From positions 530 through 64,529 of the forward strand of contig DASYSE010000121.1 in assembly GCA_036003705.1 (NCBI GenBank): a stretch of DNA of 64,000 bases, read 5' to 3'. Both the position numbers and the translations under genes were made by a program. Below the pieces are notes generated by a model that did no database searches, had not been told where the DNA came from, and saw nothing but the letters and a program-made list of their open reading frames with translations. Within the stretch, counting starts at the first letter, position 1. Each line of letters begins with the position of its first letter. Of this stretch, positions 19,136-48,100 are shown piece after piece. The DNA comes from Actinomycetes bacterium (GTDB lineage Bacteria; Actinomycetota; CALGFH01).

Positions 19136-19136
19136 C

Positions 19137-19200
19137 GTCCCGCGACCATAGCCCACGTTCCTCCATGCGGGAAGGGACGCTATCCCGCGGAGCGGGACGC
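19137..19200. promoter_or_regulatory. repeated GCGGGAC-type motif in the divergent promoter region (candidate IclR operator)
   Basis: GTCCCGCG at 19137-19144 (inverted). GGGACGC at 19174-19180 and 19194-19200 (20 bp apart). TAACTT -10-like hexamer at 19205-19210. Confidence 0.3.
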
Positions 19201-19250
19201 ACCGTAACTTCTCCCCAGCGGTGCAGCCGCCGCTGTGGGAAGGAGCGCGC

Positions 19251-21073: not shown

Positions 21074-21373
21074 GCCGACCGAAGGGCGGTGGGGCGAGGT
21101 GGCCGAGGACCCGTCGCGCGAGCGCGACCGGCAGGCGCTGCCCCGCACCGAGCGTCCCGACGCGCCGCTGTACCTGGCCAGCTATCTGCGGCGGCGTGCA
21201 AGGACGACCCCCGAGGCGGAAGAGGACGCCGACGCCACCACCCCGCTGTACCTGCGCCGGTTCCGGGAGCGGCGGGCCGACCGGACGCCCCGGACGCGCC
21301 GCCGCCGGTCTGGAACGGCGAACCGCTGGAGGTCACCCGGGCCTGGGCCGAGATCACCCGAACCAAGGAGATC

Positions 21374-22159: not shown

Positions 22160-23242
22160 GCTTCGTGCGCTGGCTCGACGCCTACGACCCGGCCGAGCGG
22201 GACCGGCTGGGCGGCAAGAACGCCGGCCTCGGCGAGCTGCTGGCCGCCGGGCTGCCGGTGCCGCCCGGGTTCGCGGTCACCGTCGACGCTACCACACGGT
22301 CCGCGAGCACGCCGAGGTCCGGCGGGTGGTCGGGGGGCTGCTCGGTGAGGTCGACCTCGCCGACCCGGCCGCGATGGAGGAGCTCAGCGCCGCCATCCGC
22401 GGCTGCATCGAGCAGGTCCCGCTGCACGACGGCGTCGCCAGGGAGGTCCGCGCCGCCTACGACGCCCTGTGCGAGCGCTGCGCCAGCCAGGCGGTGCCGG
22501 TGGCGGTTCGTTCCTCGGCCACCTCCGAGGACCTGCCCGACGCCAGCTTCGCCGGTGAGCACGACACCTTCCTGTGGGTGCGCGGCCCCGACGACGTCCT
22601 GGCCTACCTGACCCGCTGCTGGTCCAGCCTGTTCACCGCCCGTGCGATCGCCTACCGACGCGAGCGGGGCTACGCCCACGACGTGGTCGCCATGTCGGTC
22701 GGGGTGCAGAAGATGGTCCGCCCCAAGGCGTCCGGGGTGGCGTTCACCCTCAACCCCAGCGACGGCGACCGCTCCCAGGTGGCGGTCGAGGCGGCCTGGG
22801 GGTTCGGCGAGGGCGTCGTCTCGGGCGAGGTGACCCCCGACAGCTTCCTGGTCGACAAGGTCCTGGGCGAGATCGTCAAGCGCACCATCGCCGACAAGTC
22901 CATGGAGTATCGGCTGGGCCCGGGCGACCGGGTGGAGCTGGTGGCGGTGGACGACGCCCGGCGCGCCGCCCCGTCCCTGACCGACGACCAGGTCAAGGCG
23001 GTGGCGCGGCTGGCCCGGCGGGCCGAGCGGCATTACGGCTGCCCCCAGGACGTGGAGTGGGCGTCGACGCCGACCTGCCCGAGGAGTCGGCCGTGACCCT
23101 GCTCCAGGCCCGCCCGGAGACGGTCTGGAGCCGCCGGCCGGCCAAGCCCGTGGCCAGGACCCATGACCCGATGGCCAGCATCGTCGCCACCCTGCTGTCG
23201 CCGCTGCACGCACGTGGACGCTCGGACCCGCCCGGGCCGTGA
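22156..23242 (+). pseudogene. PEP synthase N-terminal (ATP-grasp, PEP/pyruvate-binding family) subunit, PpsB-like, with two -1 frame breaks
   Basis: ATGA overlap with the phosphatase stop. Three consecutive frames carry GGKNAGLGELLAAGLPVPPGFAVT | YHTVREH..VRSSATSEDLPDASFAGEHDTF..QDVEWA | VDADLPEESAVTLLQARPETVW. Breaks lie at about 22289/22290 and 23062/23063. Confidence 0.75.
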
Positions 23243-23269
23243 CCCGGGCTCGACGGAAAGGACAGGGCC

Positions 23270-25084: not shown

Positions 25085-25100
25085 GACAAGGGGAGGCCGC

Positions 25101-26366
25101 ATGCTGACCGCCGAACAGAACGCCGAGCTCACCCGGGTCGGGCCGGGGAGGCCAATGGGCGAGCTCCTGCGCCGCTACTGGTACCCGGTCGCGTTCACCC
25201 GCCAGCTCGACCAGTTCCCGGTCAGGCGGGTGCGGCTGCTCGGCGAGGACTGGGCCCTCTACCGGAGCTCGGACGGCGCCTACGGGGTGGTCGAGGAGCA
25301 CTGCCCGCACCGGCGGGCGTCCCTGGCCTACGGGGTGGTCGAGGCCGACGGGATCCGCTGCGGCTACCACGGCTGGCTGTTCGGCCGCGACGGGACCTGC
25401 CTGGACCAGCCGGCCGAGATGGACAAGACCTCCTTCAAGAACCGGGTCAGGGCCAGGGCCGGGCGGGCCGAGGAGCTGGGCGGCATGGTCTGGGTGTATG
25501 TGGGCCCGGAGCCGGCGCCGCTGCTGCCCCGCTACGACGTGTACGTGATGGACGGGGTGCGTGACTTCGGCCATGCGCTGCTGCCCTGCAACTGGCTGCA
25601 GATCATGGAGAACGCGGTCGACCCGCACCATGTCGAGTGGCTGCACGGCCGCTACTTCGAGTTCCTCGGCAACCGGCTCGGGTTCGAAGCCCCCAAGTCG
25701 TTCCAGCGCCGGCACGTCAAGGTCGCCTTCGACGAGTTCGAGCACGGCATCATCAAACGCCGGCTGCTGGAGGGGCACACCGAGGCCGACGACGACTGGG
25801 CGATCGGGCACCCGCTGGTGTTCCCCTACTGCATGCGGGTCGGCGGCGCCGGCATCGACCAGATGCAGATCCGGGTCCCGGTCGACGACACCACCACCTG
25901 GTTCGTGCTGTACACGGTGCACGCGCCGGAGGGGGCCGGGGTCGAGCCGCAGCAGGCGATCCCCGACTACCAGCTGCCCTGGCGCGACGAGCAGGGCAAC
26001 CACATCGTGGACTACGTGGAGGGCCAGGACATCATGGCCTGGGTCACCCAGGGCCCGATCACCGACCGGACGGTCGAGCACCTGGGCAAGTCCGACGTCG
26101 GCATCGCCATGCTCCGCAAGCAGTTCAAGCAGCAGCTGGCGGCGGTGGCCGCCGGCCGCGACCCGATCGCGGTGGTGCGCGACCCCGCCGCCAACCGGCG
26201 CATCGACCTGCCCTGCGAGAAGAACAAGTTCGGGGCCGGTGCCGACTTCGCCCTCCAGTGGATGAACCTCGGCTTCACCCGCTACTCGCCGCAGCTCAAG
26301 GACCTGCTGCGCCTGCACACCGACGCAGCCGCGGCCCGGGCCGCGGCGGTCGGGGCCGATGTCTAG
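25101..26366 (+). CDS. Rieske non-heme iron oxygenase alpha subunit, phthalate-dioxygenase-like family
   Basis: ATG after GGGGAGG. N-terminal LTRVGPGRPMGELLRRYWYPV; Rieske CPHRRASL..CGYHGW; iron site-like NAVDPHHVEWLH. Confidence 0.85.
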   Translation: MLTAEQNAELTRVGPGRPMGELLRRYWYPVAFTRQLDQFPVRRVRLLGEDWALYRSSDGAYGVVEEHCPHRRASLAYGVVEADGIRCGYHGWLFGRDGTCLDQPAEMDKTSFKNRVRARAGRAEELGGMVWVYVGPEPAPLLPRYDVYVMDGVRDFGHALLPCNWLQIMENAVDPHHVEWLHGRYFEFLGNRLGFEAPKSFQRRHVKVAFDEFEHGIIKRRLLEGHTEADDDWAIGHPLVFPYCMRVGGAGIDQMQIRVPVDDTTTWFVLYTVHAPEGAGVEPQQAIPDYQLPWRDEQGNHIVDYVEGQDIMAWVTQGPITDRTVEHLGKSDVGIAMLRKQFKQQLAAVAAGRDPIAVVRDPAANRRIDLPCEKNKFGAGADFALQWMNLGFTRYSPQLKDLLRLHTDAAAARAAAVGADV

Positions 26367-35325: not shown

Positions 35326-35374
35326 TCCGGGTTCACCTGGCGTCGGCGCAGCAGCCGACACCCGCAACTCCGCC

Positions 35375-36263
35375 TCAGCGCTCCGGGACCAGGCGCCGGA
35401 GCAGCGGTTCGGCCGCTCGGATGACCAGGTCGCGGTCGTGGGTGATGACGAAGTCGAGGCGGCGCTGTGCGTCCGGCCCGCCGTCGCCGCAGTCCTTGGC
35501 GACCAGGGCGGCGGCGAAATGGGGCCCGATCACGACCAGGTCCCACTCGCCGCGGAGCGGATCGTCGGGTGCGAGGTCGGCGCCGCGGACCCCGGGCCAC
35601 CGGGGTGACCGGCATGCCGTGGCCGAGCGCGCCGGTGAACGCCGCCCTGGTGGCGAGGAACTCGAACCGGCTCCGGGTGGCCGGCGTGAAGTGGCCGGCC
35701 TCCTGGAAGCAGGCCAGCAGGACGTTGGGCTCGGCGGCGTCCAGGCCCTGGTGCTCCAGGTGCATGCTCATCTCCAACAGCAGCTCCTTGGTGGCCCGCC
35801 GCGGCTCCCGAGCCGCCGCGACCACCTCCCACGGCGTGGAGCCCTCCGCGGCGACCGGGTTCCTGAGCAGGGCAATCGTGCCACCGGGCGATGGCATGGG
35901 AGACGGCAGCGGCCCCGGGTGGCCGAACAGAAACCCCTGGCCAATGGTGGCGCCGGCGGCAACGGCCTCGCGGGCGTGCTTGATGGTCTCGATGCCCTCG
36001 GCGATGACGGCGGCGTCGGTCCGCTCGGCCTGGGCCCGCACCGCGTTGATGATGTGGGCCGCCTCGGCGGTGGTGCGCCCCTGGAGCAGCCGCAGATCCA
36101 GCTTGATCAGGTCGGGCCGCACGAACGGCAGCACGGCCAGGCTGGCCGGCGCGGCGCCGACGTCGTCGAGCGCGACCCCCCAGCCGGCCTGACGGGCCCG
36201 GGCGACGGTGGCCAGGAGCCGGGCCGGGTCACCGCCCTGCTCGCCCCGGCCGGCTGACCTCCT
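35375..36263 (-). pseudogene. EAL-domain phosphodiesterase relic (5'-truncated and frameshifted)
   Basis: Begins mid-domain immediately after the upstream stop codon (..GVALDDVGAAPASLAVLPFVRPDLIKLD..AEGIET..QGFLFG). No EAL motif and no plausible start. The frame changes near 35590-35600, and the C-terminal part (..GEWDLVVIGPHFAAALVAKD..) ends at 35375. Confidence 0.65.
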
Positions 36264-37610
36264 TCAGCCGTCCCTCCGTTGCACCGACTCGGGATCCCCG
36301 GCAATCAGGAGGTCTGGCCCCGCCTGATGGACCGTGCGGTTCACCAGGTGCAGCCCGTCGGCCACCGAGCTGGTCCCAAGGTCGCCGACGGCCTCGATGC
36401 CCTTGCCGAGCAGAACGGGCGCCACGGCGATCACCACCCGGTCCAGCAGCCGTTCCCGTAGCAGCGAGGTGATGACGCGCGCCCCCCCTTCGACCAGCAA
36501 CGACCGCACCCCCGAAGCTCGCAGCCGGCCCAGGCCGTCGTGCAGGTCGATCCCGTCCGGGCCCTCCCGGACCACCTCGACCGTCACCCCACCTTCCCGC
36601 ATGGCTGCCCGCCGGTCGGGGTGGGAGCGCCCGGTGGTCAGGACGATCGTGGCCGCGTCGGCGCCGAAGACCTGGGCGGTGGCTGGGAGCCGTAAGGTGG
36701 AATCGAGGATCACCCGGATCGGGGAGGCGCCGGGGACCATGCGCACCGTGAGCAGGGGATCATCGGCCAGCACGGTGCCCGCGCCGACCGCCACCGAGTC
36801 GCAGGCCGCCCGCAGCGCATGGGAGATGCGGCGCTCCCTGGGGCCACTGATCCATTTCGCCTCTCCGCTGCTGGTGGCGATCCGGCCGTCCAGCGTCTGG
36901 GCGTACTTGAGCACGACGTAGGGGCGGTCGGTGCGGGGGTGGACGTCGCCGAGGAGCGCGGTGGCGTCCAGGGCCTTGTCTTGACCGTCCAGACCGTCGT
37001 CTGCCGCCAGGGGTTCCCCGCCCGGCCTGCGGTGGCCGAGCCGTTCACGTTTGGTTTCCACGTAGCCGCGGTTCCGCAGGTGGGGTGCGGTCTGGATCGG
37101 CACGAGGTCCTCGACCAGGATGCCCGCCCGGTCCAGCGCACCGGCCTTGTCAGGGTTGTTGCTGAGCAGGCGGACGCTCCGGACGCCATTGGCGACCAGG
37201 ACCTGGGCGGCCTCCCGGTAGTCCCGGCTGTCCACCGGCAGCCCCAGCCGGAGGTTGGCCTGAACGGTGTCGTCGCCCTGGTCCTGCAAGATGTAGGCCC
37301 GAAGCTTCTCGACCAGCCCCACCCCCCGCCCCTCATGGCCGGGGACATACAGCAGCAGCCCTCGACCTTCGGCGGCGATCAGCCGCATGGCCAGCCGGAG
37401 CTGTGGTCCGCAGTCGCAACGGAGCGACCCCAGGGCGTCGCCCGTGAGGCAGCCCGAGTGCAGGCGCACCAGGACACCGCGGCCATCTCCAATGTCCCCA
37501 CGGGCGAAGAGGAGATACAGGTTCCCCGATGCCCCCTGGAAGGCGCGAAGATCGAACTCCCCGGCCCAGGTGGGCAAGGGGAGGTGGGCAACCTCCTGGG
37601 GCGGGAGCAT
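36264..37610 (-). CDS. GTP cyclohydrolase II fused to a RibD-type C-terminal reductase domain
   Basis: ATG 37610. RibA motifs VRLHSGCLTGDALGSLRCDCGPQL, GRGVGL. Then YVVLKYAQTLDGRIATSSGEAKWISG..AVGAGTVLADDPLLTVR. No deaminase (CMP/dCMP zinc) motif. Confidence 0.85.
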   Translation of the reverse strand: MLPPQEVAHLPLPTWAGEFDLRAFQGASGNLYLLFARGDIGDGRGVLVRLHSGCLTGDALGSLRCDCGPQLRLAMRLIAAEGRGLLLYVPGHEGRGVGLVEKLRAYILQDQGDDTVQANLRLGLPVDSRDYREAAQVLVANGVRSVRLLSNNPDKAGALDRAGILVEDLVPIQTAPHLRNRGYVETKRERLGHRRPGGEPLAADDGLDGQDKALDATALLGDVHPRTDRPYVVLKYAQTLDGRIATSSGEAKWISGPRERRISHALRAACDSVAVGAGTVLADDPLLTVRMVPGASPIRVILDSTLRLPATAQVFGADAATIVLTTGRSHPDRRAAMREGGVTVEVVREGPDGIDLHDGLGRLRASGVRSLLVEGGARVITSLLRERLLDRVVIAVAPVLLGKGIEAVGDLGTSSVADGLHLVNRTVHQAGPDLLIAGDPESVQRRDG

Positions 37611-37727
37611 CCTGCTAGCTATCACCTGCCTGTCGGCAGCTAAACGTTTTGTCCGGGAACGGCTCGGGTAGCAGGTTCTCATGCGCCAGCGACCATCGGT
37701 GGACGGTCGGCCCCTGATGGCTGGGCG

Positions 37728-38729
37728 GTGGCCCCGGTGAAGGCCCGTGCGGTCCACTTCGTGGCGCCTCGACGGGTCGAAGTGCGGGAGGTCGACCTCC
37801 CGACGCCGGCCGAGGGAAGTGTCCTCGTGGCCACCGAGTGGTCCGGGATCTCGAGCGGTACCGAGCTGCTCGCCTACCGGGGCGAGATCGACCCCGACCT
37901 CCCCCTGGACGAGACCCTCGGCTCCCTGGCCGGCACGTTCACCTATCCGTTCCGCTACGGGTACAGCGCGGTCGGCCGGGTGGTCCAGCCCGCCGGGTCC
38001 TTCACCGAGGGCCAGCTGGTCTTCGCCCTCCACCCCCACCAGGACCGGTTCGTCGTTGCCGCCGGGGAGGCCGTGCTGGTCGACGGTCTGGATCCTCGCG
38101 CCGCCACCCTCTATCCCTTGGTCGAGACTGCCCTCCAGGTCTGCCTGGATGCCCGCCCCCGCCTGGGAGAGGTCGCCGTGGTGGTGGGCCTGGGGACGGT
38201 CGGCATCCTGGTCGCCGTGCTGCTGGCCCGGGCCGGCGCGGTCGTCCTCGGATCCGAACCGTTGCCCGCCCGGCGGGCCGCCGCCGACACCTGCGGGGTA
38301 CGGGCCCTGGCCCCTGACGAGGTCGCCGACGCCGTGGCGGAAGGAACCAGAGGGCGGGGAGCCGACCTGGTGGTCGAGGCCAGCGGGAACCCCCGGGGCC
38401 TCGCCGAATCCCTGGGGCTGCTGGCCCACGAGGGAACCGCGCTGGTCTGCTCCTGGTACGGCACCAGGCCGGCCGCCCTCCCCCTTGGCGCGGCGTTCCA
38501 CCGCCGGCGGCTGGCCATCCGCAGCACCCAGGTCTCCACCCTCCCGGCGGCCCTCACCTCCAGATGGGACCGCGGTCGCCGGGCCGAGGTGGCATGGCGC
38601 CTCGCCCGCGAGCTGCCCCTCGGCGTCCTCTGCACCCACGAGTTCCCGTTCGAGCGGGCCGCCGCGGCCTACGCCCACGCCGACCGGAAGGACGATGGCC
38701 TGATCCACGCCGCGCTGCGGTACCGGTGA
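37728..38729 (+). CDS. medium-chain (zinc-type) dehydrogenase/reductase family protein
   Basis: GTG start. Motifs SGISSGTELLAYRG, VVVGLGTVGILVAVLLARAG. 333 aa. Confidence 0.8.
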   Translation: MAPVKARAVHFVAPRRVEVREVDLPTPAEGSVLVATEWSGISSGTELLAYRGEIDPDLPLDETLGSLAGTFTYPFRYGYSAVGRVVQPAGSFTEGQLVFALHPHQDRFVVAAGEAVLVDGLDPRAATLYPLVETALQVCLDARPRLGEVAVVVGLGTVGILVAVLLARAGAVVLGSEPLPARRAAADTCGVRALAPDEVADAVAEGTRGRGADLVVEASGNPRGLAESLGLLAHEGTALVCSWYGTRPAALPLGAAFHRRRLAIRSTQVSTLPAALTSRWDRGRRAEVAWRLARELPLGVLCTHEFPFERAAAAYAHADRKDDGLIHAALRYR

Positions 38730-38761
38730 GGATGCCGGGCAGTCTCACGAGGAGGACCGGG

Positions 38762-39145
38762 ATGACCGTCGGCTACCAGGTGGGGTCCAGCGTCACCGTC
38801 CGGGCCCTGCATCGGCTGCCCGTCCCGGGGCCGGAGGGAGAGCTCCACTCCCACGACTACCGGATCGACGTCGAGGTCGGCCGACGCGAGCTGGACGAGC
38901 ACGCCATGGTCTGCGACCTCGACGTGCTCCGGTCCACCATGCAGGCGATGGCCGCGCGGATCGAAGGCAAGGACCTGGAGGAGATCCGCCCGCCCCAGGC
39001 CGAGGCCGTGACCGTGGAGATCCTGGCCCGGTGGGCGCACCAGCGCCTGATCCCGGCGCTCCGGCAGGCCGGAGCCGACAGGCTGGCGGTTCGGGTGTGG
39101 GAATCCGCCTCGGAGTTCGGCGGCTACGCCGGTCCGGTGGCGTGA
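38762..39145 (+). CDS. 6-pyruvoyl-tetrahydropterin synthase / QueD-like family protein
   Basis: ATG 38762 after GAGGAGGA. 127 aa. ELHSHDYRIDVEV (H-x-H zinc motif) and ..CDLDVL... Confidence 0.7.
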   Translation: MTVGYQVGSSVTVRALHRLPVPGPEGELHSHDYRIDVEVGRRELDEHAMVCDLDVLRSTMQAMAARIEGKDLEEIRPPQAEAVTVEILARWAHQRLIPALRQAGADRLAVRVWESASEFGGYAGPVA

Positions 39146-40206
39146 TCGGCCGCGGCGACCTCACGCAGCGCTCCGAAGAACAGCTTCGCCGACTGCGCCC
39201 AGGTCGGCCGGCCGGCAGCCCTGCGCGCCGCCGCCGCGGCCAGTCTCCGCCGCAGACCGTCGTCCTCGGACAGCCGGCCGAGGGCGTGGCTCAACCCGGC
39301 CAGGTCACCCGGAGTGGCCAGCAGCCCCTCTCGACCGTCCTCGGCCAGGTGGGGCAGGTTGCCGGCCGACCAGCCGACCACCGGCAGACCGGCGGCCATC
39401 GCCTCACCCCAGACCGTCCCGAAGGGCTCCCGCAGGCTGGGCAGGGCGAACACGTCAGCCTCCCGGTACAGCACCGCCACCTGCTCTGCCGGCACGGGAC
39501 CGTGGACCACCACCCGGCCGGTCAGGTCGGGCCGCGACAGCCGGGCCCGGACGCGCGCGCTGTACCGGCGATCGGCCTGGTCGTCGCCGACCAGGTGCAG
39601 CGTGGCCAGCCGCTCGGGGAGCCGGGCCACGGCGTCCAGCAGATCCAGGATGCCCTTGCGCTCGACCCAGTTGGCCACGCACAGCAGCCCGGCCTGGCGT
39701 CCCCGGCGAAGGTCGACGGCGGCGTGCTCGGAGGAGACCGGCAGGTCGCGGCCGGGAGGCACCACCCGGACCCGCTCCGGCGGGTACCCCTGGGCGACCA
39801 GCTCGTCGCCGAGGGCCTGGCTGGCCACAAGGAGCAGGCGGGCCCGGCGGTACGCCCACCGGTCCAGCGGCATCTGGAGCCCTCGGCGCACCGGCCCGTG
39901 GTCGATGCCGCCCGGAGGCTGGTGCAGACTGCCGACCGTTGGCGTCCTTGGTCGCCGCGGCAGCCACGGCCCGAGGAAGGCAGCGGCGATGCTGTCGAGG
40001 ACGACGACATCGGCCCTGGCCCGCCGTCGTACGGCGGGGCCGGCCAGCATGGACAGGGGGAAGGGGAGGTCGGGGAACGAAACGAAGTCGACGGTGGCGC
40101 CACACGCCGGAGCCAGCTCCGCCATGCGGCGATGGTAGCGATAGCCGCCGGTCAGGCGGCCCGGGTCACCGAGGGTGACCAGGGAGACCGAGAGGATGCG
40201 GGTCAT
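39124..40206 (-). CDS. GT4-family (group 1) glycosyltransferase A
   Basis: ATG 40206 (MTRILSVSLVTLG) after GGAG. ..LPSLREPFGTVWGEAMAAGLPVVG... Its 3' end overlaps the PTPS-like gene by 22 nt. Confidence 0.8.
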   Translation of the reverse strand: MTRILSVSLVTLGDPGRLTGGYRYHRRMAELAPACGATVDFVSFPDLPFPLSMLAGPAVRRRARADVVVLDSIAAAFLGPWLPRRPRTPTVGSLHQPPGGIDHGPVRRGLQMPLDRWAYRRARLLLVASQALGDELVAQGYPPERVRVVPPGRDLPVSSEHAAVDLRRGRQAGLLCVANWVERKGILDLLDAVARLPERLATLHLVGDDQADRRYSARVRARLSRPDLTGRVVVHGPVPAEQVAVLYREADVFALPSLREPFGTVWGEAMAAGLPVVGWSAGNLPHLAEDGREGLLATPGDLAGLSHALGRLSEDDGLRRRLAAAAARRAAGRPTWAQSAKLFFGALREVAAADHATGPA

Positions 40207-41281
40207 CCATGTGGCTCCGAGCATGTTCGGGCCCGAAGGGCTGTACGGCGGTGGCGAACGCTACCCTCTGGAGCTGTCCCGGGCCCTGGCCACCGAGGTG
40301 GACTGCGAGCTGGTGACCTTCGGCGCCCGGCCCGGCCGGTGGCGGGAGCGCGCAGGCCTCGAGATCCGGGTCCTTCGGCCGCTGGTCCGGCTGCACCGCC
40401 ACCCCGCCCAGCCGGTGACCCCGCTGCTGCCCGCGGCGCTGGCCGGCGCCGAGATCGTCCACGCACATCATTTCCGGAGCGTACCCACTCGCATGGCGGC
40501 GGTGACAGCCCGCCTCCGGGGAGCGGCCACCGCGGTGACCGACCACGGCCTGCCCGGCCGGACGTGGGGTGGACTCGTCCACCGGCTGTTCGACCGCTTC
40601 CTGACCGTGTCGCGGTTCTCCGCCGAGCTGCTGGGTGCCCCCGAGGCGAGGACGCGAGTGATCTACGGCGGCGCCGACCCGCGGCGCTTCTCCCCTGCGC
40701 GCGATGCCGACCGCCACGGCGTCCTGTTCGTCGGGCGGCTGACTCCCCACAAGGGGATCGACCGTCTGATCCGCGCCCTGCCCGCCGGTGCGGCCCTGCG
40801 GATCGCCGGCGGCGGCGGCCACGACCCCCATCCACCCGAGCGGGACTACCCGGACCTGCTCCGCCGGCTGGCCCGCGACCGGGACGTGGCCTTCCTCGGA
40901 CCGGTACCCGACCCCGCCCTGCCTGGCCTGTACCGCCGGGCCGCCGTCCTGGCCCTGCCATCGGTCGACCGCACCTGCTACGGCCGGCATGTCCCCGTCT
41001 CCGAGCTGCTCGGTCTCACCGCGCTGGAGGCCATGTCCAGCGGGACCCCGGTGATCGCCAGCCGGATCGGGGGCCTGGCCGAGGTGGTGGTGGACGGGGA
41101 GACCGGGTTCCTGGTGGAGCCAGGCGACGTGGCCGCGCTCGAGGACCGCCTCGCGCTGGTCCTGTCCGACCGCCGCCTGGCCGCCCGGCTGGGCGCCAAC
41201 GCCCGTGATCTGGTCCTGGAACGGTTCACCTGGCGGGCCTGCGCGGAGCGGTGTCTCGCCGCCTATGAATCGCTGAGGTGA
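40196..41281 (+). CDS. GT4-family (group 1) glycosyltransferase B
   Basis: ATG 40196 (MRVIHVAPSMFG). ..ELLGLTALEAMSSGTPVIASRIGGLAEVVVDGETGFLV... Confidence 0.8.
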   Translation: MRVIHVAPSMFGPEGLYGGGERYPLELSRALATEVDCELVTFGARPGRWRERAGLEIRVLRPLVRLHRHPAQPVTPLLPAALAGAEIVHAHHFRSVPTRMAAVTARLRGAATAVTDHGLPGRTWGGLVHRLFDRFLTVSRFSAELLGAPEARTRVIYGGADPRRFSPARDADRHGVLFVGRLTPHKGIDRLIRALPAGAALRIAGGGGHDPHPPERDYPDLLRRLARDRDVAFLGPVPDPALPGLYRRAAVLALPSVDRTCYGRHVPVSELLGLTALEAMSSGTPVIASRIGGLAEVVVDGETGFLVEPGDVAALEDRLALVLSDRRLAARLGANARDLVLERFTWRACAERCLAAYESLR

Positions 41282-41284
41282 GCG

Positions 41285-41974
41285 CTAGATCGAGCTGGGA
41301 TCGGCGGCGGCCAGCGCGGCGGTGAGCGTGTCGACCACCGGCACGCCGGTGGCCTCCAGGGCGTGGCGGTGGTGCGAGCCCCCGTCGTACAGGACGCAGC
41401 GGGCGCCGACCGCCCGCGCCGCCGCCAGGTCGTCCAGGGAGTCGCCGACCAGCACCACCGTCTGAGGTGCAAGCTCCAGCGCGGCCAGGTGCGCGACCAG
41501 GTGCTCGGCCTTGCCGCCGCCTCCAGGCCGACGTAACCCGTCCACGCGGACGAAGAAATGGTCGATCCCCAGCCGCTCGACCAACGCAACCAGGTCCTGG
41601 TGCCGCCACATCGACAGCAGCGACTGGGGCAGGCCGGCCGCCTCGGCGGCCGCCAACGCCGCCCGCGCGTCGGATGCCAGCGCCAGCCGCTCCAGCCGGG
41701 CCTGGTAGCCGTCGTGGTAGGCCTCGTCGAGGGCCTGCCATTCGTCGGCTGAGACGGCCCGGCCGACCACCTGCTCGTAGAACCGCTGGACCGGACGAGT
41801 GAAGTGGCTGCGGTAACGGTCGGCGTCGATCGGGGGAACGCCCAGCAGCGACAACGCGTCGTTGACCGCCGCCACCACCGCGACCTGGTCGTCGAACAAG
41901 GTGCCGTTCCAGTCCCACACCAGGTGGCGGGTGCCGCTGTCGGTATGGCGGGGGGCGCCGTCCATGTGCGCCAT
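41285..41974 (-). CDS. HAD-IA phosphatase (phosphoglycolate phosphatase-like)
   Basis: Track ORF of 229 aa. Motif I VWDWNGTLFDD; ..VLVGDSLDDLAAARAVGA... Confidence 0.8.
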   Translation of the reverse strand: MAHMDGAPRHTDSGTRHLVWDWNGTLFDDQVAVVAAVNDALSLLGVPPIDADRYRSHFTRPVQRFYEQVVGRAVSADEWQALDEAYHDGYQARLERLALASDARAALAAAEAAGLPQSLLSMWRHQDLVALVERLGIDHFFVRVDGLRRPGGGGKAEHLVAHLAALELAPQTVVLVGDSLDDLAAARAVGARCVLYDGGSHHRHALEATGVPVVDTLTAALAAADPSSI

Positions 41975-42102
41975 GCAGGGCAGTGTAGGCCCAAGGAGAG
42001 GATCAGCCGTCGAGGGTGGCCCGCACCAGGTCGCGGAACTCCTCTACGGCTTCGGGCGGCCTCGGGCGGGACCGGCCGGAGGCCTGGCCGACCAAGGGTG
42101 TC

Positions 42103-42504
42103 TCACCAGTCGGTCTTCGCACCGGGGATGGCGGCCACCCCGGCCTTCGCCACCTCCAGGTCCTCTTCGCCGGAACCGGAACTCACTCCCACCGCTCCCA
42201 GGACCTGGCCGCCGACGATGATGGGCAGTCCGCCCTCGAGATTGGTGAGGCGTCCCCCGGTGACGAGGGCGAGTTTCAGATCGTGCCCCGGTTCCACACC
42301 GCCGGTCGCGGACCGACGATCGGCGGCGGTGAGCGCCTTGCGCTGTGCGGTCTGGATGGAGAGGAACTTCGCGCCATCCATCCGGACGAACGCGAGCAGT
42401 CTCCCTCTGTCGTCGACGACGGCGACGCACTGCGGAGTGCCCATTGCCGCTGCGCGCTCCACCGCGGCCTGAAGGACGTGCAGCGCCCCTTCATGGGTGA
42501 GCAT
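42103..42504 (-). CDS. GlcG/HbpS-like (DUF336) protein
   Basis: Track ORF of 133 aa. Motifs AVVDDRGRLLAFVRMDGA, ..GGLPIIVGGQVLGAVGVSSGSGEED... Confidence 0.7.
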   Translation of the reverse strand: MLTHEGALHVLQAAVERAAAMGTPQCVAVVDDRGRLLAFVRMDGAKFLSIQTAQRKALTAADRRSATGGVEPGHDLKLALVTGGRLTNLEGGLPIIVGGQVLGAVGVSSGSGEEDLEVAKAGVAAIPGAKTDW

Positions 42505-42656
42505 CAGACGCGTGGCGGTGTCGGCGATGGTGCCCTCCGGAACCGACGAATGGCTCGATCCACCATTGACAATCCCTCATACCTTAGCACGTTACTGAGC
42601 CGCGCCCCGTGACGTCCGGCTCGGCGCCGGGTCGAGGAAGGAAGGCTCAGGCGGGG

Positions 42657-43541
42657 TCAGCCGGAGATCCCGGTGAGGGTCTGGGAGACCGAGCGGGGGT
42701 CGCGGAGGCTCCAGCGGCCGGCTTCCACGGTGGCGAGGAAGTCGGCCACCAGCCGGTTGAACAACTCCGGCTCCTCGAGATTCGAGGTGTGCCCGGTCTT
42801 CGGCAGAACCACCAGCCCCGCTGACGGGATGGTCCGCTTCAGCATGAGGTTCGTCTCGAGACAGCCGGCATCCTCGTCACCGACCATCAGCAGGGTGGGA
42901 ATCCCCAGGGCCCGGAGGTCGTCAGCCAGGTCGTAGAGCGAGGGGCGCTCCCGCTGGACTCCGCGCATCGTAAGCGCCGACCCCACGGAGGAGTGCTCGG
43001 ACAGCATGCGCACGAACTCCTCCCACCCCCGGCGATCCTTGTTCTGGAACTGGACCCGGGCCGGGCCGGCCCCGTAGGTCGGAGCGATTGCCGCCGCTCC
43101 CTGGTTCTGGAACGCCTCCGCGATCGCCTGGCTCTCCGCTCGGAACGACGCTCGAGCGTCGGGAGGCGCTCCATAGCCGCATCCGGCCACCACCAGCGAC
43201 GCTGCCCGATCCGGGTGGCGCAGTCCGAGGTGCAGCGTGCAGAACGCTCCCATCGACAGGCCCACGATATGCGCTCGCTCGATCCCGAGGTGGTCCAGCA
43301 CCGCCAGCGCGTCGGCGACGGCAAGATCCTGAGAGTAGGCGGCAGGGTCCGTTGGCACGTCGGAGGGCGGATAGCCTCGAGCCGCGTAGGTCACACACCG
43401 ATGCCGGCGAGCAAGGCATCGGATCTGGGGTTCCCAGCTCCGATGATCCCCGGCGAACTCATGGATGAACAGGATCGGGGTTCCTCCCCCGGCCTCTTCG
43501 TAGTACAGACCAACTCCACCTTCCGACGACGCGACCCCCAT
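42657..43541 (-). CDS. alpha/beta-fold hydrolase
   Basis: Track ORF of 294 aa. Motifs ILFIHEFAGDHRSW; nucleophile elbow VGLSMGA; C-terminal ..TGHTSNLEEP... Confidence 0.85.
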   Translation of the reverse strand: MGVASSEGGVGLYYEEAGGGTPILFIHEFAGDHRSWEPQIRCLARRHRCVTYAARGYPPSDVPTDPAAYSQDLAVADALAVLDHLGIERAHIVGLSMGAFCTLHLGLRHPDRAASLVVAGCGYGAPPDARASFRAESQAIAEAFQNQGAAAIAPTYGAGPARVQFQNKDRRGWEEFVRMLSEHSSVGSALTMRGVQRERPSLYDLADDLRALGIPTLLMVGDEDAGCLETNLMLKRTIPSAGLVVLPKTGHTSNLEEPELFNRLVADFLATVEAGRWSLRDPRSVSQTLTGISG

Positions 43542-43708
43542 CGGTTCACCTCATCTTTCGGTCGGCTGTCGCGAGGGCCTGCTGCAGCCCGTGTCCAGGC
43601 CGCCAGCGCCGAGCATGACCTCGGCGCACATCGCGGACCAACGCCACCCGCCATCCGGTCCCCGCTGGCTTGACTGATCGATCCCGGCTCAGGTACTTTT
43701 TGAGGTCT

Positions 43709-43723
43709 TAAGATAGTATCTTA
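43709..43723. promoter_or_regulatory. 15-bp palindrome TAAGATA-G-TATCTTA in an AT-rich promoter island
   Basis: 7-bp arms are perfect reverse complements. It overlaps the -10-like TAGTAT (43714-43719). It lies 11 nt upstream of GTG 43734, which has no SD. Confidence 0.4.
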
Positions 43724-43733
43724 GAACTCGACG

Positions 43734-44537
43734 GTGAGCGCCCGGGAAAGGGAGCACCCGGTGGAGGGAGCGGTCGAGGTCCGCGGCGTGAGCAAGTCGT
43801 TCCCGCGCCACCGGGGCGGCGAGCTCCGAGTTCTGAACGATGTCTCCTTCTCCCTCGACGCCGGGACCTTCATCTGCCTGGTCGGCCCCAGCGGCTGCGG
43901 GAAGTCGACCCTCCTGCGGATCATCGATGGGCTGATCCCGCCCGACTCCGGCGAGGTGCTCATCGGCGGCCAGAGGGTCCGTGCGCCCTCGCTGGACCGT
44001 GGATTCGTGTTCCAGCAGTTCAACCTCCTGCCATGGCGCACCGTGCTCGGGAACGTGGAGTTCGGGCTGGAGAACCTGGGGGTGAGGAAGCAGGAACGGC
44101 GGCGGCGCGCGCGCGAGGTCATCAAGCTCGTGGACCTCGAGGGGTTCGAGACCTACTACCCCAGTCAGCTGTCCGGGGGGATGCAGCAACGTGTCGGCCT
44201 GGCCAGGGCGATCGCCGTGGAGCCGGCGATCCTGTTGATGGACGAGCCGTTCGGCTCGGTGGATGACCAGACCCGGATGCTCCTCCAGGACGAGCTCCTC
44301 AAGATCTGGGAGCAGGCCCAGAAGACCGTCATCTTTGTCACCCACGACATCGAGGAGGCGCTCTACCTGGGGGACAAGATCGTGGTCATGTGCGCCCGAC
44401 CGTCGCGCATCAACCGGATCCTGGAGGTCCCGTTCGGACGACCTCGAACCGACGAGATCCGAGGGGCCCCGGAGATGGGCCATCTCAAGCAGGAGATCTG
44501 GGAGGAACTGAAGTCCGGGGCCACGGTGGAGGGGTGA
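43734..44537 (+). CDS. ABC transporter ATP-binding protein (NitT/TauT family)
   Basis: Walker A GPSGCGKST, signature LSGGMQQRVGLARA, Walker B LLMDEPFG. Confidence 0.9.
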   Translation: MSAREREHPVEGAVEVRGVSKSFPRHRGGELRVLNDVSFSLDAGTFICLVGPSGCGKSTLLRIIDGLIPPDSGEVLIGGQRVRAPSLDRGFVFQQFNLLPWRTVLGNVEFGLENLGVRKQERRRRAREVIKLVDLEGFETYYPSQLSGGMQQRVGLARAIAVEPAILLMDEPFGSVDDQTRMLLQDELLKIWEQAQKTVIFVTHDIEEALYLGDKIVVMCARPSRINRILEVPFGRPRTDEIRGAPEMGHLKQEIWEELKSGATVEG

Positions 44538-44539
44538 GG

Positions 44540-45403
44540 ATGAGATCGGAGACGAGGGTCTCATCCGAGGGAGACCTCGTCTCCGGGGGCGACCAACCGG
44601 CGTTGTCCAGGCGCGGCACCGAGGACAGTCTCCCGGGATGGAGGCGCCTTCTCCGCAACAAGTGGGTGCTGCGGGCCCTCTTCTACGGGGCCATCCTGGC
44701 GGTGTGGCAGGCCACCGCCGTCATCAAGGGCGAGTTCTTCCTCCCCACCCTCCCCCAGACCGTCAGGGGATTCGGCGAGATCTTCACCGAGGGCTACGCG
44801 GGGACGCTGCTGGGGACGCTCCGCCAGCTGGTCTCCGGCTTCCTGATCGCCCTGGTCATCGCCATCCCAGTGGGTGTGCTGATGGGCCGGTTCCGGTTCG
44901 TCGAGGACCTCCTCGCTCCCTATGTCAACACGCTGTTCGTGACCCCCAAGCAGGCGCTGCTGCCGATCATCATCGTCGCCGTCGGCATCGGGTTCTGGTA
45001 CCGCACCTGGGTCGTCGTCCTCTTCGCCGTCTTCTTCCCCATCATCAACACGGCCGCGGGCGTCCGCTACGTGGACACGGAGCTCCGGGAGACCGCGCGG
45101 GCGTTCGGGACGGGCCGGTGGCGGATGTTCAGCCGGATCTACCTCCCGGCATCCGCCCCGTTCGTCGTGGCCGGGATCCGGCTCGGCTTCGGGATGGCCA
45201 TGAAAGGCATGGTGATCGCGGAGCTTTGGATCTTCGCGGGGGCCGGGAACCTGCTGGAGACCTTCTCCCGGTCTCCGCTACGGCTCGATCTCTACTACCC
45301 CCTCGTGCTGCTCATCATCATCTTCGCGGTCTGCGTCAACGAGCTGCTCAAGTGGGCGGAGCGAAAGCTCCGGCCGGCCGCGCAGGCGACCGGGCAGGTG
45401 TAA
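44540..45403 (+). CDS. ABC transporter permease (NitT/TauT family)
   Basis: ATG 44540, 2 nt after the ATPase stop. TM spans. ..ETARAFGTGRWRMFSRIYLPASAP... Confidence 0.85.
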   Translation: MRSETRVSSEGDLVSGGDQPALSRRGTEDSLPGWRRLLRNKWVLRALFYGAILAVWQATAVIKGEFFLPTLPQTVRGFGEIFTEGYAGTLLGTLRQLVSGFLIALVIAIPVGVLMGRFRFVEDLLAPYVNTLFVTPKQALLPIIIVAVGIGFWYRTWVVVLFAVFFPIINTAAGVRYVDTELRETARAFGTGRWRMFSRIYLPASAPFVVAGIRLGFGMAMKGMVIAELWIFAGAGNLLETFSRSPLRLDLYYPLVLLIIIFAVCVNELLKWAERKLRPAAQATGQV

Positions 45404-45407
45404 CGCG

Positions 45408-46226
45408 ATGTCCGAGCTGGAGGGAGCGACGCAGCAGCGGGTCTGGGCGCGGCGGCCAGGCGCCGGACGCCGCCGCCACCTGGACCGCGGCAAGCTCGCC
45501 CGATGGACCCTGTCCATCGCGCTCTTCTTCGTCCTGTGGGAGGCCGTCGGCAGGAGCGGCCGCATCATCGCAATCCTTCCGGCTTCGGAGGTACTGCCCG
45601 ACCTCGCACAGCAGATCGCCGAGGGTGAGATCCTCCGGGCCACGCTGGGCACGCTCACGATCGCCGGCGTCGGATTCGCCATCGGGGCCGCCATCGGAGT
45701 CCCGACCGGTGTGCTGCTCGGAGTGTCGGAGCGCTGGTCGAGCGTCCTGGACCCGCTGGTGAATGCGTCGCTGTCGGCGCCGATCGCGATGTTCATCCCG
45801 GTCATCGCCGTGTACCTCGGCCTGGAGTTCAAGGCGAAGGTGGTGGGGGTCCTGCTCTTCAACGTCTTCGTCATCATCGTCAACACCGCCACCGGGATCC
45901 GGGAGGTGCCGCCCAGCGTCGTCGAGATGGGTCGGGCCTTCGGGACCAGCCCCTCCGCCATGTACCGGCGGATCATCCTGCCCTGGGCGAGCCCCTACAT
46001 CATCACGGGACTGCGGATCGGCGTCGGCCGATCCGTCGAGGGAGCGATCCTGTTCGACCTGTTCCTGCGGACCGAGAACCTGGGTCTGGTCATCCGGAAC
46101 GCGGCGGGGTCGTTCGACCTCAGCACACTGCTGGGTTCGGTGTTCTTCATCACGATCATCGCCGCCGGGACGATGGGTCTCGCCCGCATCGTCGAGTGGC
46201 GCCTGCTCCGGTGGAAGACGGGATGA
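45408..46226 (+). CDS. ABC transporter permease (NitT/TauT family), second copy
   Basis: Track ORF of 272 aa. ..EMGRAFGTSPSAMYRRIILPWASP... Confidence 0.85.
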   Translation: MSELEGATQQRVWARRPGAGRRRHLDRGKLARWTLSIALFFVLWEAVGRSGRIIAILPASEVLPDLAQQIAEGEILRATLGTLTIAGVGFAIGAAIGVPTGVLLGVSERWSSVLDPLVNASLSAPIAMFIPVIAVYLGLEFKAKVVGVLLFNVFVIIVNTATGIREVPPSVVEMGRAFGTSPSAMYRRIILPWASPYIITGLRIGVGRSVEGAILFDLFLRTENLGLVIRNAAGSFDLSTLLGSVFFITIIAAGTMGLARIVEWRLLRWKTG

Positions 46227-46299
46227 GCGAAGGAAGGCGGGGACCTTCCCGATCACGACGACGGCGGCGTTGTCCGCCGAAACGAGGAGGTGGATCCGG

Positions 46300-47391
46300 G
46301 TGAAGCAGCTCGTCAGGGTGCTCGTGCTCGCGAGCGTGGTCGCGCTGGTGGCCGCCGGGTGCGGCGAGGATGAGGCGCCGTCCTCCGGTCCGAAGCCGGT
46401 GCGGGTGGTGACCAGCTCCACCGGACAGGCGTACGTGGGACAGTTCCACGCCGCCGAGCTGTTCGGTGACAAGTTCGGGCTCGCCTCGAACAACCAGCTG
46501 ACCGAGTTCGAGGACGAGGGGGCCGCCGCGCAGGTGCTGGTCTCGGGCGGGGCCGATGCCGGCTCCACCGGACTGACCCAGGTCATTCAGCTCATCAGTC
46601 GAGGGCAGAAGCTGAAGGCGTTCTGCCCCGTCCAGGTGGACAGCACCGAGCAGCTCGTCGGGATCACCAGCAAGATCAACTCGCTCAACCAGATCACCGA
46701 CCCGAAGATCCGGGTGGCCGTTGACAGTCCCGGTGGCCTGGTGAACTTCATCATGAACCTGGTGTTCCAGCAGAAAGGCCTCGGGGTCAAGGTCAGCGAC
46801 CTCAAGAACGTGACCGTCCTGGGGGACGGGAGCCAGCGCCTGGCCGCGCTCGCGGCCGGCCAGGTGGACGTGGGCTCGGTCGACCTCTTCGAGCTCCCCG
46901 ACCTGCAGAAGCAGGTCGGGGCCGAGAACGTGACCACCCTCAGCGTCACCGCGGCCGATGCCGACTTCCTGGCCAACATCTACTACGCCTCGACCAAGTG
47001 GCTCGATGAGAACACGGACCTTGCCGGGCGGTTCTGCGCGGCCACGCTGTACTCCAACCGGGTCCTCGCGGCCGACTACAAGCAGTACAAGGCGGCGGTG
47101 GACAAATACATCAAGGGAGGGGTCGACGAGTCGATCACCAAGACCAACTGGGACTTCGCACGCAAGTATCAGATCTGGCCCTACAACGACGACGTGATGA
47201 CCCCGGAGGCCATCAAGACCGTCATCGACGTGGGCGTGGCCTCGGAGCTGCTGGAGAGCCCGGCCAAGGACTACACCTTCGACGACATCGTCGACACGCG
47301 GCCGCTGAAGATCGCGATGGACCTCGTCGGAGGGCCGGTGAGCGCCGACGACATCCTGGCCGGTACGGTGCCGGCGCCGAAGGGCGGCTAG
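46300..47391 (+). CDS. ABC transporter substrate-binding lipoprotein (NMT1/THI5-like fold suspected)
   Basis: GTG 46300 after GAGGAGG. Lipobox LVLASVVALVAAGC. In frame within track ORF 45763..47391. Confidence 0.75.
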   Translation: MKQLVRVLVLASVVALVAAGCGEDEAPSSGPKPVRVVTSSTGQAYVGQFHAAELFGDKFGLASNNQLTEFEDEGAAAQVLVSGGADAGSTGLTQVIQLISRGQKLKAFCPVQVDSTEQLVGITSKINSLNQITDPKIRVAVDSPGGLVNFIMNLVFQQKGLGVKVSDLKNVTVLGDGSQRLAALAAGQVDVGSVDLFELPDLQKQVGAENVTTLSVTAADADFLANIYYASTKWLDENTDLAGRFCAATLYSNRVLAADYKQYKAAVDKYIKGGVDESITKTNWDFARKYQIWPYNDDVMTPEAIKTVIDVGVASELLESPAKDYTFDDIVDTRPLKIAMDLVGGPVSADDILAGTVPAPKGG

Positions 47392-47428
47392 GAGGAGCCC
47401 GGGAGGCGTCGAACATGGAGGTGAGCGG

Positions 47429-48100
47429 ATGAGCGAGGGTGGACCCCCACGAACCGGGTTGCCGCTGGCAAGGGTCGCCCCTGCGACGACCCGTCTCCTG
47501 GTCGTGGACGTGCAGAACGACTTCCTGGCCGACGGTGGGTGGTTCGCCAACCACGGGCACGATCTCGAGCCGATGCGCCGGGCCGTGGACAACGTGGAAC
47601 GGTTCATCCCGGTGGCCCGGGCCGCGGGCGTCCGGCCGATCTTCATCAGGGCGATCTACGACGAGAAGTGGCTCTCCAAGCCGATGCTGGAACGCCATGA
47701 GCTCGTCGGCCTGGACAGCCGTCACTGTCAGGAAGGCACCTGGGGAGCGGAGTTCTATGTGGTGCGCCCGCAGCCCCAGGACGACGTCATCGTCAAGCAT
47801 CGCTACAGCGCCTTCATCGGGACCGAGCTGGACCCGCTGCTTCGTGCCCAGGGTGTCGAGAACCTGATCATCGTGGGGGTGACGACCAACGTGTGCGTCG
47901 AGTCCACCGCCCGCGACGGCTACATGCTCGACTACCACATCGTCCTGGTGGAGGACTGCACCGCCTCCTACAGCGAGGAACCGCATCGGGCAACCCTGGC
48001 CAACATCCGCCGGGCCTTCGGCCGCGTCGTGACGGCCGAGGAGGTCACCTCGGTCTGGCGTGAGGCCGAGCTCCTGCCGAGGGTGGCCGCGGCGGTCTGA
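47429..48100 (+). CDS. isochorismatase-family cysteine hydrolase (amidase type)
   Basis: Track ORF of 223 aa. Motifs LLVVDVQNDF, ..IIVGVTTNVCVESTARDG... Confidence 0.85.
   Translation: MSEGGPPRTGLPLARVAPATTRLLVVDVQNDFLADGGWFANHGHDLEPMRRAVDNVERFIPVARAAGVRPIFIRAIYDEKWLSKPMLERHELVGLDSRHCQEGTWGAEFYVVRPQPQDDVIVKHRYSAFIGTELDPLLRAQGVENLIIVGVTTNVCVESTARDGYMLDYHIVLVEDCTASYSEEPHRATLANIRRAFGRVVTAEEVTSVWREAELLPRVAAAV

Follow-up and report, generated by a model that had tools for sequence, protein, structure and literature searches.

Three subfamilies of PTPS proteins are distinguished by their motifs, namely PTPS-I (CxxxHGH), PTPS-II (CxxxxxHGH) and PTPS-III (ExxHGH) (PMC5041015), and a fourth, PTPS-IV, carries the published signature FGPAQ (PMC5445326). 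A PTPS-IV neighbourhood with PF00925 (GTP cyclohydrolase II, GCH II) and PF01872 (RibD_C) has been on record since 2017 (AGeNNT, PMC5445326). Biochemical and structural work on the Streptomyces representatives has not revealed their function (PMC13151069; PDB 3d7j), and a 2026 review ascribes to the third RibA copy of S. coelicolor a new function outside flavin biosynthesis (PMC13151069). In the literature we found no published function for the PTPS-IV/GCH II cluster. Here we describe a block of six genes (g1 to g6, positions 36264-41974) in a stretch of 64,000 nucleotides of contig DASYSE010000121.1 from an Actinomycetes bacterium; this whole stretch is referred to as the window. The cassette in the window is a variant of the known orphan cluster related to SCO6650-SCO6655 of Streptomyces coelicolor, and it is real, conserved and functionally linked. 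The features that set it apart as a variant are a Glu-type T-fold enzyme that retains its metal site, a fusion of GCH II with a reductase, two GT4 glycosyltransferases, a HAD hydrolase and a lack of membrane components. With a probability of roughly 0.55, the six genes form one conserved module that converts GTP into a glycosylated small molecule keeping the 2-amino-4-oxo-pyrimidine part of guanine. The original prediction, made from the sequence of the window, had been unable to match the combination to any described pathway. Indeed no pathway has been described, but the association of PTPS-IV with GCH II and RibD_C (PMC5445326) and the SCO6650/SCO6655 cluster were already known.

The six genes and their predicted enzymes

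Genes were called by GC3 frame analysis and by Pfam and NCBIfam profile scans, with starts checked by homologues. These analyses back six genes in the strand order - + + - + -, in agreement with the original prediction on both their order and their families. The G+C content of the whole window is about 72%.

The first gene, g1 (36264-37610, minus strand, 448 amino acids; Pfam, NCBIfam), encodes a fusion of GCH II and a RibD_C reductase. The GCH II domain (37098-37589, minus strand, residues 8-171) scored 173 bits against PF00925 (GTP_cyclohydro2) and 198.7 bits against NF001591 (cut-off 148), and a PDB sequence search with this half matched 4i14 and 2bz0. In the alignment the zinc-binding cysteine triad C..CDC is kept. 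The tyrosine at the position of E. coli Tyr105 is also present (RAYILQ), where the Streptomyces SCO6655-like protein has methionine (RAMALQ). Spoonamore and colleagues are said to have concluded in 2006 that this methionine makes SCO6655 stop at the formylated product FAPy. Since g1 retains the tyrosine, such FAPy chemistry was ruled out for it, and g1 is predicted to yield the canonical diaminopyrimidinone product. Within the same domain, the motif HSECLTGD (37400-37470) reads HSGCLTGD in the window and in the related locus L003, and HSACLTGD in L002; GCH II of E. coli and of the clusters in Chloroflexota, Actinocrinis and Streptomyces retains the glutamate.

The RibD_C domain of g1 (36306-36923, minus strand, residues 230-435; PF01872, 163 bits) is assigned as a RibD reductase by TIGR00227 (176.4 bits, cut-off 150.15). 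Its best PDB match, at 130 bits, was 6p8c, a stand-alone enzyme entered as DARPP reductase (2,5-diamino-6-ribosylamino-pyrimidinone 5'-phosphate reductase), against about 103 bits for bacterial RibD entries. Pfam detected no cytidine-deaminase-like domain in g1, which has only GTP_cyclohydro2 and RibD_C, or elsewhere in the block. Because a deaminase is missing from the block and a DARPP reductase is the best match, reduction of the un-deaminated intermediate fits this enzyme.

The second gene, g2 (37728-38729, plus strand, 333 amino acids; Pfam, NCBIfam and translation), encodes a BchC-like dehydrogenase of the MDR superfamily. The cofactor-binding domain ADH_zinc_N (PF00107) was found at 46.5 bits (cut-off 31.8), and the NAD(P)-binding motif reads GLGTVG. 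The protein resembles BchC along its full length, and BchC (TIGR01202) was its best NCBIfam match, with 94.7 bits against a cut-off of 291, so g2 is not a member of that family. The catalytic zinc ligands are absent from the translation: SGISSGTE and GYSAVG replace the Cys and His-Glu (GHE) motifs, their positions having been placed by eye from known motifs. Most likely, g2 works as a dehydrogenase whose substrate is a secondary alcohol or ketone.

The third gene, g3 (38762-39145, plus strand, 127 amino acids), encodes a PTPS/QueD-fold (T-fold) protein that scored 64.1 bits against PF01242 (cut-off 22.4). A Foldseek search with its AlphaFold model (pLDDT 77.6) returned PTPS, QueD or SCO6650 structures as all of the top 29 PDB hits, with TM-scores mostly of 0.6-0.7 (range 0.54-0.73). 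Six residues of g3 (His17, His29, His31, Thr84, Glu86 and Glu114) are invariant in 20 homologues, and His17/His29/His31, Thr84-x-Glu86 and Glu114 align with the corresponding residues of QueD. From established structural knowledge of PTPS and QueD, we take the histidines to be zinc ligands and the other residues to be pterin anchors. Glu25 stands at the position of the catalytic Cys27 of QueD, and Glu68-Gly69 at the positions of the Asp-His dyad, so that g3 lacks both the cysteine and the dyad. The active-site pattern, which the original prediction had singled out for inspection, is thus conserved in its zinc histidines and pterin anchors but not in its catalytic cysteine.

None of the published subfamilies accommodates g3 by its motif. 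It was excluded from PTPS-I (QueD) by EGELHSH in place of CxxxHGH, and profile scans found no QueC or QueE gene in the window. PTPS-II was ruled out by the lack of a cysteine upstream of HxH, and PTPS-III by glutamates at -4 and -2, not -3, from the first histidine and by a serine in place of the middle glycine. The PTPS-IV signature is also missing, g3 having PGPEG at the positions aligned with FGPAQ of SCO6650. Its neighbourhood is that of PTPS-IV, with PF00925 and PF01872 both in g1, divergent from g2-g3. An HMM (hidden Markov model) search that covered 1.84 billion representative proteins, together with a subsequent motif table, revealed three PTPS-fold classes around g3 that differ in the residue aligned to E. 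coli QueD Cys27. The Glu class has the context GPEG-x-LHxH and comprises g3 and its nearest relatives; the Ala class has the context FGPA and includes S. coelicolor SCO6650 (PDB 3d7j; FGPAQ, HGA); and the Cys class, with the Asp-His dyad, is QueD-like. The best description of g3 is a sister group of PTPS-IV with its metal site kept.

The remaining genes encode two glycosyltransferases, GT4-A (g4; 39124-40206, minus strand, 360 amino acids; Pfam) and GT4-B (g5; 40196-41281, plus strand, 361 amino acids; Pfam), and an HAD-IA hydrolase (g6; 41285-41974, minus strand, 229 amino acids; Pfam, NCBIfam). Both glycosyltransferases match the Glyco_transf_4 N-terminal and Glycos_transf_1 C-terminal domains above the Pfam cut-offs. 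Among solved structures, GT4-A comes nearest to sucrose-phosphate synthase (6kih) and MshA (7qsg, 3c4q), and its scores are far below the family cut-offs (71 bits against the MshA family, cut-off 462). Sucrose-phosphate synthase and MshA glycosylate phosphorylated acceptors, and a phosphatase acts afterwards. The g6 protein matches Pfam HAD families above their cut-offs and contains the nucleophilic Asp as well as the Ser, Lys and GDxxDD. Its motif I reads D-W-N-G-T (DWNGT), with Asn at Asp+2 in place of the usual Asp (the general acid/base), and the same holds for all seven close relatives aligned. A phosphatase role of g6 is therefore plausible but not secure; g6 may be a slow phosphatase or may catalyze something else.

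Conservation, variation and gene fusions

A scan of species-representative genomes with the g3 alignment returned 14 loci, all of them in uncultured Actinomycetota MAGs (metagenome-assembled genomes). The scan patterns were back-translated and specific to the close family; the wider context was obtained from the representative protein search by way of the encoding contigs. The block is present in about 10 actinobacterial MAG loci. In L002, L003, L007, L010 and L020 all six genes occur with their order and strands unchanged, with 70-85% protein identity, while the genes flanking the block vary. In the window the flanks encode an ABC transporter, a cNMP-binding protein, an EAL remnant, a NUDIX protein, a TrxR-like response regulator, an HbpS-like protein and an alpha/beta hydrolase. 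They were rejected as parts of the cluster, since none recurs beside the block in the relatives, apart from an incomplete NUDIX match where L010 ends. The block is thus a self-contained module. In L020, a gene of 466 amino acids with NTP_transf_3 and CDP-alcohol phosphatidyltransferase domains (14290-15690) lies 1.2 kb past the HAD gene, and it is absent from the window. This architecture is known from di-myo-inositol-phosphate synthases.

The composition of the block is not rigid. L008 (2189-2905) and L011 (8031-8696) have a stand-alone RibD_C with no GCH II domain between it and the MDR gene, so the GCH II-RibD_C fusion is not fixed even in the lineage of the window. GT4-B and the HAD gene vary among loci. 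GT4-B is missing from L005 and L009, which retain g4 and g6, and resembles the GT4 enzymes of other cluster types only weakly. Of the two glycosyltransferases, GT4-A is the core enzyme and GT4-B an accessory one.

The junctions between the genes were found as the original prediction had described them. The sole intergenic spacer (37611-37727, 117 nucleotides) separates g1 from the divergent g2-g3. The 3' ends of the convergent genes g3 and g4 overlap by 22 nucleotides (39124-39145), the divergent genes g4 and g5 overlap by 11 nucleotides that contain both ATG starts (40196-40206; ATGCGGGTCAT), and a gap of 3 nucleotides (41282-41284) lies between g5 and g6. The chosen start codons are supported by the homologues: more than 100 homologues of g3 are exactly 127 amino acids long, and tblastn alignments of g1, g4 and g5 with L002, L003 and L007 start at residue 1. 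The 22-nucleotide overlap has the same length in L002, L003 and L007, and in L020 according to gene calls, and the 11-nucleotide overlap has the same length in L002, L003, L007 and L008. The junction DNA is near-invariant among these relatives, as against a protein identity of only 70-85%. Therefore, the tight packing is a conserved trait and not an accident of a single genome.

The spacer is presumed to be a bidirectional promoter region. A sigma-70 scan of the block, spacer included, gave no promoter-like site or consensus match, and a terminator scan of the block gave a single terminator-like site, which equals the chance level. Rfam yielded no structured RNA or riboswitch at gathering scores across the window, and none at E<=1 in 37400-37950.

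Related clusters were also found in Chloroflexota. In L017, GCH II, RibD_C, MDR and PTPS genes follow each other in this order on one strand and a GT4 gene is convergent to them, while L015 has RibD_C, MDR and PTPS genes in the same order, a convergent GT4 gene and an HAD gene nearby. The PTPS proteins of these clusters belong to the FGPA class. Their GT4-A shares 60-62% identity with that of the window, more than MDR (45-49%) or PTPS (30-35%) does, and RibD_C shares 48-52%. The recurrence of the block in the window's lineage, and of its core with a convergent GT4-A in Chloroflexota, answers in the affirmative the question of co-conservation on which the original prediction had staked its cassette.

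Fusions tie the components further together. A third Chloroflexota locus, L021, encodes RibD_C and MDR in a single gene of 604 amino acids (8194-10008), followed by a PTPS gene, and this fusion is 64-66% identical to the separate RibD_C and MDR genes of L015 and L017. The gene convergent to the PTPS gene of L021 (365 amino acids) matched no Pfam family and showed no resemblance to g4 or g5. A metagenomic protein of 405 amino acids, P0199, combines an FGPA-type PTPS and a GT4-A homologue in one open reading frame (ORF). Its glycosyltransferase part is 49% identical to g4 from its first residue and starts at its own Met; P0199 may represent a genuine fusion, or else two neighbouring same-strand genes that are read through. 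An apparent MDR-PTPS fusion, P0198, seems frameshifted and was not used as evidence. With GCH II joined to RibD_C in the window, RibD_C to MDR in L021 and PTPS to GT4-A in P0199, all five core components are chained to each other.

A different arrangement, type B, occurs in Streptomyces and Actinocrinis. In a Streptomyces locus that surrounds a 98% match to SCO6650 (L019), a gene for CDP-alcohol phosphatidyltransferase (7980-8765) is divergent from MDR, PTPS-IV and GT4 genes in this order, and the locus further encodes a methyltransferase-like ORF, an LPG_synthase_TM-like protein (12884-14269) and a stand-alone GCH II. Actinocrinis MAGs and one other MAG (L012-L014) have MDR and PTPS genes followed by a His_Phos_1 phosphatase gene, and further encode a CDP-alcohol transferase of 813 amino acids (L012, 11235-13676), an LPG_synthase_TM protein, GCH II, two methyltransferases and a GT4 enzyme. 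The Actinocrinis PTPS is of the Glu type of the window and is 57% identical to g3, and the MDR is 51% identical to g2. The GT4 enzymes of type B are only 31-37% identical to GT4-A. Between Streptomyces and Actinocrinis, the CDP-alcohol phosphatidyltransferases are 54% identical and the LPG_synthase_TM-like proteins 47% identical. Their pairing with the MDR-PTPS-GCH II set hints at a lipid-linked product in these lineages. The cluster is present in very many Streptomyces genomes, more than 8000 close homologues of SCO6650 having been scored.

Three elements are constant in all sampled contexts: the adjacent same-strand MDR-PTPS pair, with the MDR gene immediately upstream of the PTPS-like gene in every locus examined; a source of GCH II or RibD_C; and a GT4 gene (except in L021). 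RibD_C, the type of phosphatase and the lipid-related genes are variable. The phosphatase slot is held by non-homologous enzymes, HAD in the window and His_Phos_1 in L012-L014, directly behind the PTPS gene in the latter, which supports the need for a phosphatase step.

A putative route from GTP and its alternatives

The original prediction of a biosynthetic cassette is well supported from GTP, by way of GCH II, to glycosylation, while the pterin or pyrimidine glycoside that it named is a candidate product. In the route that we propose, the GCH II half of g1 would open the imidazole ring of GTP and free formate and pyrophosphate, giving 2,5-diamino-6-ribosylamino-4(3H)-pyrimidinone 5'-phosphate; this step is well supported. 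The RibD_C half would then reduce the ribosyl to a ribityl group without prior deamination, which is also supported. The predicted end product of g1, on the basis of domain identity and motifs, is 2,5-diamino-6-ribitylamino-4(3H)-pyrimidinone 5'-phosphate.

Everything after g1 is inferred from family knowledge and gene linkage. In the third and fourth steps, g2 and g3, the constant adjacent pair, would jointly remodel the polyol side chain. We favour an oxidation of a secondary hydroxyl, for example that at C2', to a ketone by g2. The g3 enzyme would then grip the aminopyrimidine by its Thr-x-Glu and Glu anchors and use zinc together with Glu25 as the base. Either by closing a ring or by chemistry on the side chain, it would produce a phosphate of the dihydropterin type or one of a modified ribitylaminopyrimidine. 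In the fifth step GT4-A, whose nearest solved relatives use phosphorylated acceptors, would attach a first sugar; in the sixth, the HAD enzyme would strip the phosphate; and in the seventh, GT4-B would attach a second sugar where the lineage has GT4-B. The product would most likely be a sugar-decorated 2-aminopyrimidine or pterin derived from GTP, and it is probably soluble because no gene of the block encodes a membrane protein.

Several points weigh against this route. The order of steps three to seven is pure inference, and the product is known for no member of the cluster family. The Asn at Asp+2 of g6 is atypical for a phosphatase. The related Streptomyces and Actinocrinis clusters lack RibD_C and contain the CDP-alcohol phosphatidyltransferase and the LPG_synthase_TM-like protein, so that reduction is not universal and the end product there may be lipid-linked. 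In addition, a review citing unpublished work places PTPS-IV in F420 synthesis (PMC5041015), away from a glycoside.

The type-B clusters raise the alternative of a product that serves as head group in a membrane lipid or an envelope glycoconjugate, with the lipid-attaching enzymes of the window's lineage encoded elsewhere. They join the same MDR-PTPS pair and GCH II with lipid-related genes, the Actinocrinis PTPS and MDR share 57% and 51% identity with g3 and g2, and L020, from the window's own lineage, has its NTP_transf_3/CDP-OH_P_transf gene close to the HAD gene. However, the CDP-alcohol transferases and LPG_synthase_TM proteins from the other loci, used as tblastn queries, had no match in the 64-kb window, the Chloroflexota clusters lack these genes too, and GT4-A is distant from the type-B GT4 enzymes. 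We consider a lipid head group unlikely for the window. The statement on F420 points in another direction, that of a supply line for 5-amino-6-ribitylaminouracil, the precursor of riboflavin and F420, in which g3 would be the missing 2-amino deaminase and the glycosyltransferases would serve another purpose. Actinomycetota and Chloroflexota are the main bacterial F420 producers, and it is in these phyla that the cluster occurs. GCH II, the reductase and the HAD phosphatase would cover three of the four steps, and the cluster encodes no deaminase. Against this, the MDR enzyme, the most constant partner of the PTPS-like gene, would have no role, and GT4-A, 60-62% conserved across phyla, is found joined to a PTPS domain. 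Moreover, the zinc of the PTPS fold sits at the side chain and not at the C2 amino group, the conserved PTPS glutamates bind the 2-amino-4-oxo face and do not attack it, and g3 lacks the PTPS-IV signature. A supply line of this kind therefore seems quite improbable.

A true pterin glycoside is a sub-case of the glycosylated product that we favour. GCH II, the reductase, the MDR enzyme and the T-fold enzyme would here replace GCH I and build a dihydroneopterin-type pterin, which would then be glycosylated as in cyanobacteria. The pterin anchors of g3 are consistent with this, reduction at C1' followed by oxidation at C2' would be chemically equivalent to the Amadori step of GCH I, and GT-B glycosyltransferases are known to make pterin glycosides (PMC5683033, PMC4133829). 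The idea is nevertheless doubtful: ring closure is hypothetical, g3 has none of the PTPS-I, II or III motifs (PMC5041015), and the type-B clusters lack the reductase. It is very improbable that GT4 and HAD genes of a compatible-solute or cell-wall pathway lie beside a riboflavin-like set by chance. GT4 and HAD pairs are typical of compatible-solute synthase/phosphatase systems, and GT4-B and the HAD gene do vary among loci, but GT4-A is convergent to the PTPS gene in two phyla, the overlaps are conserved at the same length, and a single ORF joins PTPS and GT4-A. The glycosyltransferase, for which the original prediction had asked whether it might be a chance neighbour of the PTPS-like gene, is thus part of the cluster.

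Returning to the glycosylated GTP derivative as the preferred product, we tentatively suggest a more specific version of it. The window may encode a route that bypasses GCH I and leads to soluble glycosylated pterins or ribitylaminopyrimidines of a new class. A T-fold enzyme relying on zinc and Glu, and an MDR enzyme without zinc, would perform chemistry as yet undescribed in their families, and Streptomyces SCO6648-6655 may make a lipid-linked form of a related head group. If this specific version is true, one family of GTP-derived metabolites is widespread in soil Actinomycetota and Chloroflexota. Solving the pathway would provide a function for an orphan branch of COG0720 and a new fate for the first intermediate of riboflavin biosynthesis, and it could reveal a metabolite, for example a cofactor, protectant or signal, that soil bacteria commonly make.

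Surrounding DNA and comparison with described systems

On the side of g1, a minus-strand gene (35337-36134) encodes no more than the final ~70 residues of a c-di-GMP phosphodiesterase (EAL) domain, corresponding to Pfam positions 167-236 of 236. It lies 129 nucleotides from the g1 stop codon and looks like a truncated remnant, and the coding-frame signal shifts around 35350-35650, within this piece. Right after the cluster, the G+C content falls to 0.66-0.68 (42000-48000), compared with 0.72-0.75 before, in a region with ABC transporter and isochorismatase-family genes; this drop may mark the boundary of a region of different origin. Farther away, 13948-20162 and 21089-26366 hold a set for meta-cleavage aromatic catabolism that is unrelated to the cluster and includes an FAA hydrolase-family protein, a DmpG-like aldolase, acetaldehyde dehydrogenase and extradiol dioxygenase. 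Adjoining it, beside a Rieske oxygenase, a PEP-utilising enzyme is divided between two genes, PPDK_N (22326-23096) and PEP-utilizers (23270-25084).

Among the described systems, the sucrose-phosphate synthase/phosphatase (SPS/SPP) and MshA/phosphatase pairs resemble the block in that they include the nearest solved relatives of GT4-A and in that the cluster has a phosphatase-type gene. They differ in the family scores of GT4-A and in the acceptor, which in the window is presumably a GTP-derived polyol phosphate. The early riboflavin pathway in its archaeal and fungal order also uses GCH II and then reduction before deamination, together with an HAD-family phosphatase, the role presumed for g6 in the block, and a DARPP reductase is the best PDB match of the reductase half of g1. 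The block, however, lacks the deaminase, lumazine synthase and riboflavin synthase, and has the MDR enzyme, the T-fold enzyme and the glycosyltransferases in addition.

Sepiapterin reductase belongs to the short-chain enzyme class. The cyanobacterial and Chlorobium route to pterin glycosides, to which the original prediction had likened the block, is similar in logic only, as it combines a GTP-derived heterocycle, a PTPS-fold enzyme, a reductase or dehydrogenase and a GT-B glycosyltransferase (PMC5683033, PMC4133829). It employs GCH I, PTPS-II, sepiapterin reductase and pteridine glycosyltransferase. The block has GCH II with no GCH I gene, no PTPS-II motif (CxxxxxHGH), an MDR enzyme in place of sepiapterin reductase, two GT4 enzymes and a presumed phosphatase. 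The analogy thus fails at family membership.

PTPS-III, the FolB-replacing enzyme of folate synthesis, is like g3 a T-fold zinc enzyme with a glutamate for the catalytic cysteine. It differs in its motif, ExxHGH (PMC5041015), in place of which g3 has ExxxHSH with the glutamate in the register of the QueD cysteine, and the window block has no folate gene context, its partner being GCH II and not GCH I. PTPS-IV of COG0720 (Zallot 2016, PMC5041015; PMC5445326) shares with the window the PF00925 and PF01872 neighbours, and its Chloroflexota members of the FGPA class share the same operon and an orthologous GT4-A. PTPS-IV differs in FGPAQ and in the alanine at the catalytic position, where g3 has glutamate, and MDR, GT4 or HAD partners were not reported in the two papers (PMC5041015, PMC5445326).

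The closest system is SCO6650-SCO6655 of S. coelicolor. As seen in the Streptomyces locus L019, it resembles the window in an MDR gene directly upstream of the PTPS-fold gene and in the GT4 and GCH II genes of the cluster, and SCO6650 and g3 are homologous proteins of the same fold. The two differ in that SCO6650 has FGPAQ and HGA, with alanine at the cysteine position and one zinc histidine lost, where g3 has PGPEG and HSH. Methionine occupies the Tyr105 position in the Streptomyces GCH II, unlike in g1, and the Streptomyces GT4 is only 31% identical to g4. The Streptomyces cluster has neither RibD_C nor HAD, and adds CDP-alcohol phosphatidyltransferase, methyltransferase-like and LPG_synthase_TM-like genes. 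The window version is compact and soluble-looking, with six genes that hold all steps, and the fusions fix the order of the partners. Because it is compact and g3 keeps the metal site that SCO6650 has partly lost, the window version is a more tractable start for reconstitution of the pathway than its Streptomyces counterpart.

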